From Spirochaetia bacterium (GTDB taxonomy: Bacteria; Spirochaetota; Spirochaetia; DSM-2461), in the NCBI GenBank assembly GCA_963668315.1, contig OY764216.1:704001-768000 (forward strand): a DNA stretch of 64,000 bases. Direction: 5' to 3'. Every line of letters begins with the position of its first letter. Within the stretch, counting starts at the first letter, position 1. Made by a program: the position numbers and the translations under genes. Shown one piece after another: positions 36,157 through 43,969 of the stretch. The notes below the pieces were generated by a model that ran no database searches, was not told where the DNA came from, and saw nothing but the letters and a program-made list of their open reading frames with translations.

Positions 36157-38622
36157 TTACTGCGGATCGTAGCCGGCATTCCGTACGGCCGATTTAATCT
36201 CATCAAGGACTTTTTCCGTCTCTCCGTTCAGTTCCACGGTCAGTTCCTTTTTTTTCAGGTCCACCTCAGCCTTTTCCACCTCCGTGACGGCAAGAGCGGC
36301 CTTCTCCACGGCCATCTTACAGTGTCCGCATGACATTCCTTCTACCTTGATCGTTGCTTTCATTTTATTTTCCTCCATGGATTCGATCTGTTTATTTTTC
36401 TTACCGGATAATTTCCGTTTCATATTAAAACGCTTTAAGCTGAGTGAGTTGCTGACAACCGATACGGAGCTGAAAGCCATGGCCGCTCCCGCGATGATGG
36501 GATTCAAAAAACCCAGGGCGGCAAAGGGAATGCCCAAAGAATTATAGAAAAAAGCCCAGAACAGATTCTGTTTGATCTTTTTCATCGTCTCCCGGGAGAG
36601 ATAAATCGCTGTGGCTATTTCCCTCAGATCCCCCCTCATCAGGGTAATATCCGATGATTCCATGGCTATGTCCGAACCCTCCCCCATGGCTATTCCGATA
36701 TCCGCCGTGGCCAGGGCCGGAGAATCATTAACTCCGTCTCCCGTCATAGCGACGACATGTCCCTCATCCTGCAGCTTCCTCACTTCCTCCGCTTTTCCTT
36801 CGGGGAGGACTTCGGCCAGAACATTCTCTATCCCGGCTTCCTCGGCTATGGCCAGAGCGGTTCTTCGGTTATCCCCGGTTATCATATAGATATCCAGTCC
36901 CAGCTCCTTCAGCAGGGAGATCCCTTCCTTCGAATGCTCTTTGATACCGTCGGCAACGGCAAGCAGGGCGATAATATCCGTACGGTTTGCCATGATCACC
37001 ACCGTATGACCTTTGCTTTCCCACTCATTCTTTACGCCGATTATGCTGCCCAGAGAATAACGTTCATCCAGAGACTGGATATAATCCTCCGTTCCGATGA
37101 AGTACTGCTTTCCCTCGATAATACCGGAAATTCCCTTTCCCGGAAGGGAAGAAAAATCCTCAGTCGGCTTCAGCTGAATCTCCTTCTCCCGTGCTTTCGC
37201 GACAATGGCCTTACCCAGGGGATGTTCAGACTTCAGCTCCAGTGAAGCCGCCAGAGCCAGTAATTCATCTTCCCCCAGCGCTGCGTCGGAAGGATTCATT
37301 CCGATTATTTTCCTGACTTCCGGCTTACCCTGCGTGATGGTTCCTGTTTTATCCAGAATCAAGGCTGACAGCTTCCCCGCCTGCTGAAGTACCTCTCCGT
37401 TCTTTATAAGAATTCCCTTCTGGGCTCCCAATCCCGTTCCCACCATGATGGCCGTAGGCGTGGCTAACCCAAGGGCGCATGGACAGGCAATGACAAGAAC
37501 GGAAACGGCAGCGATCAGTCCGTGTGCGGGCGAACCGAGAGCAAGCCACCATATAAGAAAGGTCAACAGAGCGATAGCCAGAACAACGGGAACGAATACC
37601 GAGGCGACCTTGTCGGCCAGCTGCTGGATGGGCGCTTTGGAACCCTGAGCTTCTTCCACGATGGCGATTATCCGGGAAAGAACCGAGTCTTTCCCTACCC
37701 GTTCGGCTTCCATTCGCAACGACCCGTAGCTATTTATCGTTCCGCTTGTAACGGAGTCTCCCGGTTTTTTCTCGACGGGCATACTTTCGCCGGTGATCAT
37801 GCTTTCATCCACGGCGGAATTTCCTTCCAGAACGGTGCCGTCCACGGGAATTCGATCGCCCGGCCTGATCAGCAGTATATCGCGGGGGACGACGTCGCTG
37901 ATGGGTATCTCCACATCCTTTCCGTCCCTTTCCACCAGCGCCGTTTTCGGCTGAAGACCCATCAGTTTTTTTATCGCTTCCGATGTTTTCCCCTTGGCCC
38001 GGCTTTCAAAATACTTGCCCAGCAATATCAGGGTAATGATCAGAGAAGACGCCTCAAAGTAAAGCCCTGCGGACATGCCTGCTCCGGGAGTATGGAAAAA
38101 ACCATTGTAGATACTGTAGAAATAGGCCGCCGATGTACCCAGGGCGACAAGGACATCCATGCCGGGACTGCCCGCCCTGACAGATTTCCATCCGGCTTTA
38201 TAGAACCGGGCTCCCACAATAAACTGCACAGGTGTGGCAAGGACAAGCTGCAGCAGGGGATTATGAAGAAACATGAGGGCCTCAATTTTGAGAAGCCCGG
38301 CGAACATGGCCAGTAGCAGGGGAGCACTTAGGAGGGAGGAGATAATCAGTCTTATCTCGAGAGATCTGAGCTTTCCCTTCTCGGAATCAGCCTCCTCCCC
38401 GCCTTCAGCCGGCAGAGAAGCGCCGTATCCCGCATCGACGACACTCTGGATAATTTCCTCGATGCTCACTTTCTCCGGATCATAGCTGACTGTGGCCTTG
38501 TCGGTTGCCAGGTTCACGGCAGCCATATCAATCCCGCTCTTTTTTTTGATACCCTTTTCAACATGGGCGACACAGGATGCACATGTCATCCCCTTTATAT
38601 CAAGCTGTATAATTTCCATCAC
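36157..38622 (-). CDS. copA: Cu(I)-translocating P1B-type ATPase with N- and C-terminal HMA domains
   Basis: GMTCASC, TGES, CPC, DKTGT, HP, GDGVND, C-terminal GMSCGHC. Confidence 0.95.
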   Translation of the reverse strand: MMEIIQLDIKGMTCASCVAHVEKGIKKKSGIDMAAVNLATDKATVSYDPEKVSIEEIIQSVVDAGYGASLPAEGGEEADSEKGKLRSLEIRLIISSLLSAPLLLAMFAGLLKIEALMFLHNPLLQLVLATPVQFIVGARFYKAGWKSVRAGSPGMDVLVALGTSAAYFYSIYNGFFHTPGAGMSAGLYFEASSLIITLILLGKYFESRAKGKTSEAIKKLMGLQPKTALVERDGKDVEIPISDVVPRDILLIRPGDRIPVDGTVLEGNSAVDESMITGESMPVEKKPGDSVTSGTINSYGSLRMEAERVGKDSVLSRIIAIVEEAQGSKAPIQQLADKVASVFVPVVLAIALLTFLIWWLALGSPAHGLIAAVSVLVIACPCALGLATPTAIMVGTGLGAQKGILIKNGEVLQQAGKLSALILDKTGTITQGKPEVRKIIGMNPSDAALGEDELLALAASLELKSEHPLGKAIVAKAREKEIQLKPTEDFSSLPGKGISGIIEGKQYFIGTEDYIQSLDERYSLGSIIGVKNEWESKGHTVVIMANRTDIIALLAVADGIKEHSKEGISLLKELGLDIYMITGDNRRTALAIAEEAGIENVLAEVLPEGKAEEVRKLQDEGHVVAMTGDGVNDSPALATADIGIAMGEGSDIAMESSDITLMRGDLREIATAIYLSRETMKKIKQNLFWAFFYNSLGIPFAALGFLNPIIAGAAMAFSSVSVVSNSLSLKRFNMKRKLSGKKNKQIESMEENKMKATIKVEGMSCGHCKMAVEKAALAVTEVEKAEVDLKKKELTVELNGETEKVLDEIKSAVRNAGYDPQ

Positions 38623-38628
38623 AGCCTC

Positions 38629-38907
38629 CTATTTGATCATTTTTCTTATCGTCCTCGATAATTCGTCAATCACTTCCGTTTGACCGGCCTGAATCTGCTC
38701 GACGACACAGCTTCGCATATGAGCTTCCAGCAGCTGAGTCTTAACGCCGGCAATCGCCGATTCCACACTCATGAACTGATGCAGGATATCATCGCAGTAG
38801 ACATCTTCTTCAATCATCCTGGTGATACCGCGTATCTGCCCTTCGATCCGGTTCATCCGCTTCACCATCTCGGTTTTAGCTTCGTATGAATGGTGCGCTT
38901 TTCTCAT
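38629..38907 (-). CDS. csoR: Copper-sensing repressor, CsoR family
   Basis: RIEGQIRGI, YCDDILHQ, HMRSCV; directly upstream of copA. Confidence 0.9.
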   Translation of the reverse strand: MRKAHHSYEAKTEMVKRMNRIEGQIRGITRMIEEDVYCDDILHQFMSVESAIAGVKTQLLEAHMRSCVVEQIQAGQTEVIDELSRTIRKMIK

Positions 38908-39733: not shown

Positions 39734-40651
39734 ATGAATAAATATCTTTTCTGCCTGCTGATGCTCCCGGCCTGCTTATGGTCCGGGGAGCTTCAGTTCG
39801 GCGCCGACTCGGCTTTCTACCCTAAAGACAGGGGAAAGAGCCCGGAATTTCAGGTCTGGACCGGCTTCTCCGATTCACAGCCGATACTGAGAGGGGATTC
39901 CGCGTTAAGGGAAAATAACAATTTTGCCGTTCAGGGCAAGTTAAGCTTCTCCCCCGTCTCTCTGGGATCAGATCTGATCTGTCAGCTTACGCCCCTGGCC
40001 TTTCTGAAGCTGGAGCAGGGAATCCACCTGGGCACGGGATGGACTCTCGGGGAAGACATAATCGGCCTGGGACTGAACAAAGACGGATCGTCAGATCAAT
40101 CCATAGAATCCCTTAGCGGCGTTGTCTGCAAGACATGGCTCGGGGTGACGATTCAGTTTGACCTGGCGGCAGTCCTCCCCGACCCGGGCGAATTCAGCCA
40201 TCTGGTTTTTCAGTCCTCCTTCAGTACCTGCTTCCAGTATTACAGCGGAGCGGATAGGGATGAGCCCTGGAGATATCAGGCGGATGAGGGAGAAAATTTC
40301 AATGGATTTCTTGGTAAGAATCGAACTGTACTGGGATACGTCATTCCCCGCTCACCGATTGATTTCGCCGGATTTATTCTGGAGACGGAGGGATACCTCG
40401 GCTCTACGGCCTCCCTTAGCCGAATAGATGACAGCGGCTGGGGTTTAGATTTTGTTGAAGTGCGCCTGGGCCCTCTGGCCAACTGGCAGATCAGCGGCGG
40501 CCATTCACTCTCTTTTCTTGTCCAGTGGAAAAACAGCCGCGCCTATACCGCTGAATCGAAAGAGGAAGATTTTTTCATGAATAGAATATGCACAGGACAG
40601 GGACAGCTTTCTTTTGAGAGAATCGCCCTTTCCTATAAATATGTCTGGTAA
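39734..40651 (+). CDS. Exported hypothetical protein, probable outer-membrane beta-barrel
   Basis: AAGGAG SD, signal peptide, ends ALSYKYVW; paralog of 28527-29585. Confidence 0.7.
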   Translation: MNKYLFCLLMLPACLWSGELQFGADSAFYPKDRGKSPEFQVWTGFSDSQPILRGDSALRENNNFAVQGKLSFSPVSLGSDLICQLTPLAFLKLEQGIHLGTGWTLGEDIIGLGLNKDGSSDQSIESLSGVVCKTWLGVTIQFDLAAVLPDPGEFSHLVFQSSFSTCFQYYSGADRDEPWRYQADEGENFNGFLGKNRTVLGYVIPRSPIDFAGFILETEGYLGSTASLSRIDDSGWGLDFVEVRLGPLANWQISGGHSLSFLVQWKNSRAYTAESKEEDFFMNRICTGQGQLSFERIALSYKYVW

Positions 40652-40661
40652 GGGGAGGACA

Positions 40662-41738
40662 ATGATGAAGAGGAACATGGTCAGATGCTGTCTGATATTA
40701 GCTGCGGGATTACTTTTATCCTGCTGTGTGACAAAAGAGGAGGAGTTAATGGAAACGGATAAATACCCATCCATAGAGCAGGAGATTTTCCGATTGGCCC
40801 AGACCGCGGCCAGCAGCCATAACAGTCAGCCCTGGCGTCTGGAAATCCGGGAAGAGGGAGGATATCGGGTTATAGCCGCGGAGGAACGCTGGCTCAGGGA
40901 AGTTGATCCCGAGAAAAGGGAGTTTCTTCTTTCCCTGGGGGCTTATCTCGAAAACCTGAAGATTGCCGCTGCAGCCTGCGGATACGAAGCTGACATGACG
41001 GTTCTCATGGAGAACAGGGATGACCGAATCGTCGCGGAATTTACTCTGCATCGGCAAGGGGGAAACATTGACGAAGAACAGGTCCGGCTTATGCGCAACG
41101 GTTCCATGAAAAAGGTGAAATACCGCCGGACCCTCCGGAAAGAGCGGGAATGGTCAGCCTTTGTTGAGGGTGAAAAGAACGTCCTCTGGATTGAAAGGGA
41201 CGATGAAAAATTCTCCTATCTAGCGGAGGGTACGGTCCAGGCGAACCGCCTGCAGGCGGAAAACGACAGCAAGCAGAGGGAACTGGCCGATTATATCTGC
41301 TTCAGTGAAGCGGACGAGGTGGCGGGCATCGGGATGACGCCGGCCATGCTGAACCTTCCCGCCCTTATGGTCCGCTCCTGGTACAAAAAGGCCTCTCCCG
41401 ATACGGTCATGTCTTCCTTCTTCCGCAGCGGCGCCGTCGGTAAGTCCCGCAAGCTCATGAGGAATTCGGCCGGAATCCTTCTTATAACAAGTGAGGAGAA
41501 TTCTCCCCGGGCGCTGCTTGCCTGCGGCGGTTTATTCCAGAAATTATATTGGGAAGGCAAAAAGAGAAACATCGAACTTCATACGGTTTCACAGATTCTG
41601 GAAGAATCCCCCCAGAAGGAAGATCTGGCTGCCTCCGGTATGGCGGATAAACCGATTCAGTTCCTGCTTCGTGTCGGGGAGACGGATGCGGTCAGCTCCG
41701 CCTCCCTGAGAGAGGCCTCTGCCCGCATTACAGATTAA
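40662..41738 (+). CDS. Acg-like FMN-binding nitroreductase, possible lipoprotein
   Basis: AASSHNSQPW, DPEKREFLLSLGAYLENL, QFLLRVG; LLLSC lipobox-like; start after GGAGG. Confidence 0.8.
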   Translation: MMKRNMVRCCLILAAGLLLSCCVTKEEELMETDKYPSIEQEIFRLAQTAASSHNSQPWRLEIREEGGYRVIAAEERWLREVDPEKREFLLSLGAYLENLKIAAAACGYEADMTVLMENRDDRIVAEFTLHRQGGNIDEEQVRLMRNGSMKKVKYRRTLRKEREWSAFVEGEKNVLWIERDDEKFSYLAEGTVQANRLQAENDSKQRELADYICFSEADEVAGIGMTPAMLNLPALMVRSWYKKASPDTVMSSFFRSGAVGKSRKLMRNSAGILLITSEENSPRALLACGGLFQKLYWEGKKRNIELHTVSQILEESPQKEDLAASGMADKPIQFLLRVGETDAVSSASLREASARITD

Positions 41739-42213
41739 ACTGCCAGTAGCCCACATCTATCCATTTTTCGAATTTGTAACCCACTCCTTCGAACTGGGCC
41801 ACTTTCTTAAAACCGAAGTGTTCATGCAGCTTCTGACTTTTTTCATTGGGGAGGGCGATACCGCCTATCATGGTCCGGTATCCCCTGCCCTTCAGTTCCT
41901 TTATCAGTTCGCCGTAAAGCTGACGCCCCCAGCCCTTACCCAGATGTTCCCGGGAAAGATATACGGTAGACTCAACGGAAAACCGGTAGGCACAGCGCCC
42001 CTTCCATTTACTGGCATAAGCGTAGCCTACGATTCGGCCCTCTTCTTCCATGACAAACCAGGGAAGGCCTTCTTCGGTCTTCTCTCTAATCCGCTCCGCC
42101 ATATCGGAGGCGCTCAGACTCTCTTCCTCGAACGTTACCGGCGTATTTTCAATATAGTAATTGTAAATACCCGCAATCTGTTCCGCATCATTGTCATTCG
42201 CCATTCTTATCAC
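41728..42213 (-). CDS. GNAT N-acetyltransferase, phosphinothricin/arsinothricin (Pat/ArsN1-like) family
   Basis: IYNYYIENTPVTFEE, AYRFSVESTVY, GKGWG, LPNEKSQKLHE, VGYKFEKWIDVGYWQ. Confidence 0.85.
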   Translation of the reverse strand: MIRMANDNDAEQIAGIYNYYIENTPVTFEEESLSASDMAERIREKTEEGLPWFVMEEEGRIVGYAYASKWKGRCAYRFSVESTVYLSREHLGKGWGRQLYGELIKELKGRGYRTMIGGIALPNEKSQKLHEHFGFKKVAQFEGVGYKFEKWIDVGYWQFNL

Positions 42214-42235
42214 TGAATTATCCTCCCGCGCTGCC

Positions 42236-42529
42236 TCAGCAGCATCCTTTATTATTTCCGCAGGAGCATCCGCATGACGGCTCTCCCCCCTTTAGAAATC
42301 CATTTATCACCGCTTCGGCGCAGCCCACGCCTTTATTCACGGCAAGTGCCGAAACAGGACAGTTCATCACACAGGCGCCGCATTCCATGCACGAATCTTT
42401 CCTGCTGATTCGCGTTTTTCCCTCTTCCATCACAAAAACATCCCGCGGGCATACATCCAGGCACATACCGCAGCCGATACATTTCTCACAGTCCATTGCA
42501 AGGGTGGCCACGTTCTTCAGATAAGTCAT
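42236..42529 (-). CDS. hgcB: Mercury methylation 2[4Fe-4S] ferredoxin HgcB
   Basis: Start MTYLKNVATL after GGAGG; CIGCGMCLDVCP, CMECGAC, GVGCA, Cys-rich tail ending CC. Confidence 0.93.
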   Translation of the reverse strand: MTYLKNVATLAMDCEKCIGCGMCLDVCPRDVFVMEEGKTRISRKDSCMECGACVMNCPVSALAVNKGVGCAEAVINGFLKGGEPSCGCSCGNNKGCC

Positions 42530-43331
42530 AAGGTTCCTCCCGCCCTCAGGCAGATAACCGTCCCCGCCGCCAAAGCAAGAAGGGTAAGGCCGATCTGAAT
42601 GGGTATGGCCCATTTCATCTCTTTGACAACACCCGAATAGGAGGTAAAGGCAGAAGCAGGGGGGTTAGAAAACCTCCGGTAATCGCTCCCAGAAGAAGGG
42701 GGACCAGCAAGGAGAAATTCAGCTGGTTCCAGCCGGAACAGAATCCGTTCATGATGAGAACCAGCAGGGCGAAGGGCAGTAAAATCTTCCAGGACTGAAT
42801 AAGTTCCAGTGGGGTCAGAACCAGTCTGTCCCTCCAGGAAAAGGATTTTGTCCGCATTCGGGCCGTTTTCTTCATGCCCCCTGCCAGAAACTCCGGAATA
42901 TCCCTTGCTTCCACGGGACCGAAGATCACTCTGAAACCCGTTTCTTTTCTCACATCCCGGGCCGAGACTCCCGGAGCTCCCAGCTGGGGCAGAATCAAGA
43001 CCCTGTGATCAAGCCGGGAAGCAAGTCCCGTCATTTCTATGCGCCGGACCAGTTCGGCCGTTCCGAAAGTACCCTTTCCGGCGGCGCACCAGACATTAAT
43101 TCCCCCGGTATCCAGAACCAGAATGTGGCAGTCCAGCCCTACTAGCTCCCGGCGCAGAATATCAACCGTCAGTTTATAGTTTGCCGTGACAAAGACCGGA
43201 GAAACCCTTCCGGGATTGTTCATCCCGTATAATCCGGGTTCTACCCTATAATTTCCCCGGTTTATTCCCAGACGTACCTTAAGGGCTCCCCATATATCGG
43301 AAGTACTCCAGACCCCGTTCAATTCATTCAT
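42526..43331 (-). pseudogene. hgcA: Mercury methylation corrinoid protein HgcA, frameshifted by apparent internal deletion
   Basis: TANYKLT, cap helix NVWCAAGK, LPQLGAPGV, FGPVEA; reading frame stops at 42615 while the HgcA-type C-terminus (FTSYSGVVKEM..IPIQI) lies in another frame at 42648-42526. Confidence 0.85.
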
Positions 43332-43806
43332 GTTCCTCCCCTCTGCAGGCACAGCATCCGTTATTCTCGCCCCCTTCGGTGCGCATGGCTTCCACCAGTG
43401 CATGCAGATCGTAAGAAATGCGTTCCCTGATATCCTTCTCAAGGCCTTCAAAGATTCGTCCGAAGCTGTCCAGACTGGCTCGGTTTATCCTTTCCACGAT
43501 TTTTCTTCCCTCTTCCGTCAGCCCCAGGTTCTGACTCCTCCGGTCATGGGAACGGGATTCCCTCCGAACAAGACCCTTTTTCACAAGGGTATCTACGGTT
43601 CTGGAAAGAGATGCCTTATCCAGGCGCAGTTCATCATTCAGATTTGTGAGGGTCATATCGTCCTTGCCCTCCAGACAGAGAAGGATATGGCCCTGATTAA
43701 CAGTCACGCCGCTGCAGTAGGAGGAATCCTTAATTCGGCTGAGGACGACGCGTTCCATTCGGCGCATGGTATTCCGGAAATCAATTACATGTTCTATCTG
43801 ATTCAT
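43324..43806 (-). CDS. MarR family regulator with Cys-rich C-terminus
   Basis: LDKASLSRTVDTLVKKGLV, DRRS, LTEEGR; YCSGVT and terminal GCCAC; stop overlaps hgcA start. Confidence 0.88.
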   Translation of the reverse strand: MNQIEHVIDFRNTMRRMERVVLSRIKDSSYCSGVTVNQGHILLCLEGKDDMTLTNLNDELRLDKASLSRTVDTLVKKGLVRRESRSHDRRSQNLGLTEEGRKIVERINRASLDSFGRIFEGLEKDIRERISYDLHALVEAMRTEGGENNGCCACRGEEHE

Positions 43807-43812
43807 AATTAA

Positions 43813-43841
43813 ATGTTATTATCAAATATTGATATTGTCAA
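43813..43841 (-). promoter_or_regulatory. marR-hgcAB promoter with palindromic operator
   Basis: TTGACA-N17-TAACAT, 6 nt before ATG; TATCAA-ATA-TTGATA (43820-43834) in the spacer. Confidence 0.75.
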
Positions 43842-43888
43842 CTAATAGGCTGTATTTTACTTTCTCCTTGAGAATTCTTTATCCTATC

Positions 43889-43917
43889 TTGACTTATAAT
43901 CCCTATTTATCTATAGT
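43889..43917 (+). promoter_or_regulatory. rpsD sigma70-type promoter
   Basis: TTGACT-N17-TATAGT. Confidence 0.65.
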
Positions 43918-43969
43918 GTAAAACCGCGTTTCTGAAACGCGCAAATCCAAACCATGAGGTGATTAAGTA

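Follow-up and report, generated by a model that had tools for sequence, protein, structure and literature searches.

A MarR-headed hgcAB-arsN1b gene run with a truncated hgcA in a spirochaete, probably a nonmethylating relic under a MarR_ars-like repressor

Control of the mercury methylation genes hgcAB by ArsR and the arsenic-linked MarR_ars repressors have been described separately. In Pseudodesulfovibrio mercurii ND132, a gene for a Cys-bearing repressor, arsR2, directly precedes hgcA and hgcB (Gionfriddo et al., 10.1101/2022.10.17.512643); the main text of that paper contains no occurrence of MarR or arsN, and it reports that ArsR2 also answers S-adenosylhomocysteine (SAH) and may prefer other cations. 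In Achromobacter As-55, AdMarR_ars lies upstream of arsN, and marR-arsN pairs are a described MarR_ars arrangement (Yu et al., 10.1101/2021.08.12.456183). A MarR upstream of hgcA appears in one sentence of a 2023 paper (PMC10349881), where it is described as not associated with an ars operon and is given no subfamily, cysteines, or operator. This passing mention was the only one of MarR together with hgcAB that we found, hgcAB and arsN came up together in one review, and nothing was found on hgcA pseudogenes or gene loss, in a literature search with supplements and subscription papers outside its scope. Here, we analyzed a 64,000-nucleotide stretch of a Spirochaetia bacterium genome (the window; GenBank assembly GCA_963668315.1, contig OY764216.1, positions 704,001 to 768,000), the host genome being one 5.62-Mb contig. 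The window carries marR, hgcA, hgcB, and a gene for a GNAT N-acetyltransferase of ArsN1 family B (arsN1b), all on the minus strand and divergent from rpsD. We consider it probable that this is a broken, likely nonmethylating hgcA in a run whose intact MarR_ars-like repressor likely senses trivalent arsenic or an ion that binds thiols similarly.

As in ND132, a Cys-bearing repressor directly precedes hgcAB, but the repressor has a MarR rather than an ArsR fold, hgcA is truncated, and arsN1b follows. The window MarR shares with AdMarR_ars the N- and C-terminal cysteines and a position upstream of arsN; it differs, on a comparison that was not direct, in heading hgcAB, in having Ser as the second vicinal Cys, and in its operator variant. 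The window HgcA shares with the described protein (NF040863; five-helix model of Cooper et al. 2020, PMC7305189) the corrinoid domain, the cap-helix motif, and an adjacent HgcB and passes the hidden Markov model cutoff, whereas it has two of the five helices, no NFTG motif, and a frameshifted C terminus. Finally, the GNAT keeps the equivalents of Phe33, Ala124, Val158, and Arg77 of PpArsN1 (PDB 5JTF; Nadar et al. 2019, PMC6465285) but has Lys at Arg75 (as in the Streptomyces PAT chain 5T7D), Gly at Ala76, and Val at Ile31 and lies outside any classical ars operon.

We scored HgcA, HgcB, and ArsN1 family B with the NCBIfam models NF040863, NF040864, and NF040504, respectively, and MarR with Pfam. 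These models agree with an earlier note on this DNA about all four genes, and the motifs quoted in it (YCSG and CCAC in MarR, NVWCAAGK in HgcA, and CMECGAC in HgcB) are present. What the note overlooked is that hgcA is broken. The window HgcA (238 aa) scores 304.9 bits against a cutoff of 275, yet it spans only model positions 6 to 237 of 325, and positions 288 to 318 match in a different frame from the main open reading frame (ORF). Alignment to intact relatives puts the missing part at ∼56 residues after residue 228, i.e., an estimated ∼170 nt plus a frameshift. From the cap helix to the stop there are 160 aa, compared to 224 to 268 aa in 126 of 126 homologues, and a hydropathy scan gave two hydrophobic segments, compared to four or five in five intact relatives. 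The NFTG motif, found in 106 of 126 intact HgcA proteins, is gone. The five-helix C-terminal transmembrane domain is thus incomplete, while the conserved cap-helix Cys motif, of the NVWCAAGK type rated high stringency in PMC10087281, is intact. No solved HgcA structure was found by sequence. HgcB scores 118.4 bits (cutoff, 99) and has both CxxCxxCxxxCP motifs, the conserved Cys in CMECGAC, and the C-terminal CC pair.

The gene junctions reflect the lesion. Overlapping stops and starts had been proposed through hgcB; the start of hgcA does overlap the marR stop by 8 nt, but hgcA stops at 42615, 86 nt ahead of hgcB, and the apparent second overlap arises because the stop of the out-of-frame orphan tail overlaps the hgcB start. 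A programmed frameshift as a rescue was rejected, as the shifted product would still miss ∼56 residues, including NFTG. A split hgcA with its remainder elsewhere was likewise rejected: the missing piece had no convincing match anywhere in the complete genome (best E value, 0.26). The genome has no second hgcA copy. HgcA mutants with the transmembrane domain deleted or with Cys93 changed give no methylation (Smith 2015, as cited in Cooper 2020, PMC7305189, through which we take these results), and in the published model, helix 4 is the central stalk and helices 4 and 5 touch HgcB (Cooper 2020). The product of the window allele would retain the corrinoid domain without predicted helices 3 to 5, which include the stalk and HgcB contacts of that model. 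Because hgcA is truncated, a working methylation operon is not supported here, and the window HgcA probably no longer methylates mercury. Elsewhere, two further short HgcA matches in our phylum sample (400 other Spirochaetota genomes) are explained by a contig end and an assembly gap, and a Nitrospirota hgcA (L080:5001-5946) is frameshifted near its C terminus, through either a lesion or an assembly error.

In the protein collection searched, the HgcA closest to that of the window is P0004 of a sister genome (89% identical), which is broken in a different way: its first two helices are deleted in frame, the last helix is lost, and the cap-helix Cys is replaced by Phe. A 12-nt near-repeat at 42818 and 42668 of the window borders the position of the first of these deletions, and a colinear ∼90% relative in contigs from another study (X5) has 171 letters where the window has 252, its loose end reading as the P0004 sequence. 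The other proteins assigned to the sister, from a contig as long as that of P0004, are intact (identical to the window at 141/160 residues for MarR, 91/97 for HgcB, and 154/161 for ArsN1b), and the HgcA domain is identical at 151/170. Three same-genus genomes were also compared (G001, G002, and G003; completeness of 96%, 80%, and 90%, respectively). The marR of G002, at the same rpsD site, overlaps arsN1b with no hgcAB present, G003 has marR and arsN1b as frameshifted remnants and no hgcAB, and the cassette is absent from G001. In G002, the marR frame lacks a separate stop and runs on for 23 nt inside arsN1b (L106:1360-1382), where the overlapped frame adds two cysteines to the protein.

Among the 37 other genomes of the family, four carry hgcA, and three of these four have marR-hgcAB. 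In the MarR tree (a quick tree using 58 of 81 rows, with AdMarR_ars outside it and support given as the Shimodaira-Hasegawa-like approximate likelihood ratio test [SH-aLRT]), the window, sister, G002, and G003 MarRs group together (SH-aLRT, 100), with G002 and G003 as a pair (98), and these four nest in a 22-row clade (98) in which all other members are hgcA linked. In the HgcA domain tree, the window sequence and the marR-hgcAB copies of the family share a clade (0.898). The simplest history suggested by these sequences would be a family ancestor with marR-hgcAB, a gain of arsN1b in the genus, and then at least three inactivations of hgcA. These would have struck this genome, its sister, and the common ancestor of the G002-G003 pair independently, sparing marR and arsN1b in three of the four genomes. 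The locus is likely a nonmethylating relic that kept marR and arsN1b.

To place the regulator, we used a profile built from 22 MarRs, mostly hgcA linked (E ≤ 1e−28). It matched 28 of the 400 other Spirochaetota genomes, in 27 of the 28 directly upstream of hgcA. HgcA itself was found in 77 of the 400; this MarR heads hgcA in 27 of these 77 and occurs in one of the 323 hgcA-negative genomes. Upstream of hgcA in 72 of 80 loci with 900 nt available, there was a MarR in 14 cases, an ArsR in 21, and both in none (P = 0.007 by Fisher's test, in which kin are not independent), consistent with the proposal of the earlier note that a MarR takes the slot of ArsR. MarR-headed hgcA loci occur across several phyla. 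The suggested tie to arsenic also held up: 9 of 10 regions around plasmid relatives of this MarR adjoin arsR, acr3, arsC, arsM, arsN1a, arsN2, or an ArsP-like permease gene, as described for MarR_ars, and a 35-row clade joins hgc-linked MarRs with nine ars-island MarRs (SH-aLRT, 83). The proteins that group with the window MarR include relatives from ars islands of Deinococcus and Paenibacillus. In two loci (L236:4638-6104 and L068), ahcY, encoding SAH hydrolase, lies directly downstream of marR-hgcAB, which is of interest for a link between S-adenosylmethionine/SAH and hgcAB.

The cysteines of the window MarR are Cys31, Cys44, and the C-terminal Cys151, Cys152, and Cys154. The latter correspond to the C-terminal Cys of MarR_ars (Cys157), while the vicinal N-terminal pair (Cys36 and Cys37 in MarR_ars) is replaced by Cys31-Ser32. 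Of 48 hgc-linked MarRs, 41 have the pair, as do 8 of the 9 that are ars linked; the sister and G002 keep it, and the window and G003 have lost it; the ars-island MarR L138 carries the same Ser as the window. Judged by its sequence, the window MarR is likely MarR_ars-like and works like MarR_ars, and it may sense trivalent arsenic or another metalloid.

Of 44 hgcA-linked marR genes, 28 are preceded by the dyad TGTA-N3-TACA, compared to 0.16 expected from shuffled sequences (the best dyad in any of 200 shuffles reached 8). It is often tandem at 16 bp and also precedes three plasmid MarRs (L136 to L138), so that the operator type is shared with arsenic islands at the subfamily level. The window has a TTG-N7-CAA variant in boxes at 43842-43828 and 43826-43812, whose tandem score was reached by 0 of 1,000 shuffles and which are kept in G002 and G003 while their flanks diverge. 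When the genome was scanned for a wider regulon with a matrix to which the window boxes themselves had contributed, the runner-up among tandem sites scored 23, compared to 34. The palindrome at 43820-43834 (6-3-6) that had been put forward as the operator is real and perfectly symmetric in the window, G002, and G003, but it is only the junction of the two tandem boxes. The promoter claimed with it is present as a promoter-like site, although such sites are no more frequent than expected by chance (3 versus 2.8). As its −10 element ends 7 nt before the marR ATG, the transcript is likely leaderless. The divergent marR-rpsD gap that houses this promoter is 163 bp (43807-43969), and three genus genomes share an identical 12-nt stretch upstream. 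MarRs with the TTGA-type operator variant (L003, L004, L006, L007, and the window) lack the recognition-helix Thr of most relatives with TTGT boxes, a possible covariation.

The GNAT had been called Pat/ArsN1-like, and it does pass the ArsN1 family B model (216.4 bits against a cutoff of 210; 213 in the sister and 211.9 in G002). Its best solved relative is PpArsN1 (E = 8e−40), with four of the seven arsinothricin-site residues identical. The gap between hgcB and this gene, 22 nt long, holds a ribosome-binding site but no terminator on the minus strand, and marR overlaps arsN1b in G002; arsN1b is therefore likely cotranscribed with the upstream genes. It is the sole ars-type gene in the run, with no arsR, acr3, arsC, arsP, or arsM beside it, and ArsM had no match in the genome at E ≤ 1e−15. 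A cooriented arsN1 after hgcB was found in 0 of 33 extended spirochaete loci (30 with 1,200 nt downstream) and in 0 of 80 other hgcA loci (67 with that length), so that among the loci examined, the four-gene order is local to this lineage. In the family, 18 of 38 genomes have an ArsN1b match, and a scan of 50 of the 87 ORFs neighboring family ArsN1b genes found no ars families, one of the 50 being a generic methyltransferase. The link to arsN1b thus appears genus specific and, because arsN1b stays when hgcA goes, offers little evidence of an arsenic-related function of HgcAB, which the earlier note had favored.

In the mechanism that we favor, MarR dimers would occupy both boxes and block the leaderless transcript; As(III), methylarsenite [MAs(III)], or Sb(III) would bind Cys31 and the C-terminal cysteines and release MarR; and ArsN1b would then N-acetylate amino acid analogues of the arsinothricin or phosphinothricin type. 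Several observations weigh against parts of this account. A change like that of Cys32 to Ser cut the As(III) response in AdMarR_ars (Yu et al., 10.1101/2021.08.12.456183). The union of hgc- and ars-linked MarRs is only moderately supported (83 in the quick tree), in a comparison without AdMarR_ars, and the subfamily matrix gives the window boxes 0.2 bits, against a null 95% value of 6.7, so that the operator rests on geometry and genus conservation. Of 33 extended spirochaete marR-hgcAB loci, only 5 have an ars-type gene of any kind nearby, and the genome has a separate arsR-acr3 pair, as well as an arsR-arsP-arsC locus (G000:C1:72171-73479 and 2023151-2037173). For the lesion, the published truncations sat at residues 166 and 187 (Cooper 2020, PMC7305189) and so differ from the window allele, which keeps two helices; the Cys-to-Phe change of P0004 rests on one assembly and is not visible in X5; and G002 and G003 are only 80% and 90% complete. 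Some of these points would fit a repressor that controls the operon through the same cysteines but answers Hg(II), Cu, Cd, or thiol oxidation, which is compatible with the hgcA lesion. The loss of the Cys pair in the window and G003, the scarcity of ars genes beside marR-hgcAB, the non-ars settings of family ArsN1b genes, and the broader response of ND132 ArsR2 would all be in keeping with such a signal. However, all nine plasmid relatives in the clade have an ars-type neighbor (arsR-type, acr3, arsC, arsM, arsN, or ArsP-like permease), and eight of the nine carry the Cys pair. We hold a nonarsenic signal to be less likely than not.

The history and state of hgcA can also be read differently. 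If hgcAB had been inserted into an older marR-arsN1b unit and were now decaying, G002 and G003 would show the empty site rather than a loss. Such pairs are known from MarR_ars, L018, the closest intact HgcA whose context is known, lacks an upstream MarR, and a short purine repeat stands at both ends, although it fits a deletion equally. We nevertheless hold insertion to be unlikely, given that the MarR is nested among hgcA-linked MarRs as sister to the family marR-hgcAB copies and that HgcA falls with those copies as well. A shortened HgcA might instead be kept for another job, as a corrinoid methyl carrier with a reduced membrane anchor that acts with HgcB, an arsenical being a possible substrate. 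In both sisters, the corrinoid domain remains in frame, only membrane parts are missing, and hgcB is intact, and the published model shows several contacts between the corrinoid domain and HgcB. This seems quite improbable, since the helices lost differ between the two alleles, the sister no longer has the cobalt-binding Cys, divergence of the HgcA domain matches that of the least conserved gene, and G002 and G003 lack the domain entirely. That the deletion is an assembly error and the cells carry an intact operon is, in our view, extremely improbable. The evidence comes from contigs, in which rare variants drop out, rather than from raw reads, and two of the contig sets, X1 and X2 (one sample, S1), are possibly the source data; these are identical to the window over the whole 3.5 kb. 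However, a contig of X4 (record 14), from a second sample (S2) of the same study, also spans the junction, ungapped and with a single substitution, and none of the X1, X2, and X4 contigs listed has a joint restoring the missing part. Beyond the relic reading, a bolder extension holds that a second, unrelated family of arsenic sensors (MarR_ars-like) controls hgcAB in about one-third of hgcA-carrying spirochaetes and that HgcA is actively selected against in this genus, being costly under an arsenic-induced promoter, so that hgcA alone is repeatedly disabled while the arsinothricin resistance gene is kept. We regard this extension as rather doubtful.

Table 1. Coordinates of the marR-hgcAB-arsN1b run and its control region in the window
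Feature	Coordinates	Strand	Description
marR	43324..43806	-	160 aa; Pfam MarR; YCSG and terminal CCAC present
hgcA, truncated allele	42615..43331	-	238 aa; corrinoid domain with NVWCAAGK, two hydrophobic helices, short out-of-frame end
hgcA deletion junction	42648..42650	-	∼170 nt missing (predicted helices 3 and 4 plus NFTG motif), frameshift; size estimated from relatives
Orphan hgcA 3′ end (last helix), other frame	42526..42648	-	Model positions 288 to 318; stop overlaps hgcB start
hgcB	42236..42529	-	97 aa, intact, own ribosome-binding site
ArsN1 family B GNAT N-acetyltransferase	41728..42213	-	161 aa, intact, 22 nt after hgcB
Tandem operator array	43812..43842	-	Two 15-bp TTG-N7-CAA inverted repeats, 16-bp period, over −35 and −10
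Sigma-70-like promoter	43813..43841	-	10/12 matches, 17-nt spacer; −35 at 43841; predicted start at or near marR ATG (43806)

Other genes lie near the run. An Acg-like FMN oxidoreductase gene (40614-41738, plus strand) converges on arsN1b, the 3′ ends overlapping by 11 nt, and has no match beside rpsD in the genus loci compared. Another gene (39734-40651, plus strand) encodes a 305-aa protein with no Pfam or NCBIfam match that is conserved near rpsD in the genus; a second related stretch is found at G000:C1:732922. About 3 kb from the operon (36157-38907, minus strand), a CsoR/RicR-type repressor gene is followed by a gene for a copper P-type ATPase that bears CopZ-like domains at its N and C termini.

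This locus bears on what HgcAB natively does and how its genes are controlled. A MarR_ars-like repressor with a defined operator would allow a direct, ArsR-independent test of the link between hgcAB and arsenic. At the same time, arsenic genes can persist without hgcAB, and synteny alone is therefore no proof that HgcAB acts on arsenic. A dead hgcA can pass standard filters: both broken alleles, that of the window and that of the sister, score above the NF040863 cutoff, and the window allele also has the high-stringency motif, so counts of methylators need a check of the transmembrane part. The genus appears to offer snapshots of hgcA loss under way, and if HgcA is indeed selected against, the sister genomes would serve as a set of natural knockouts in which to look for the cost or function of HgcAB under arsenic.

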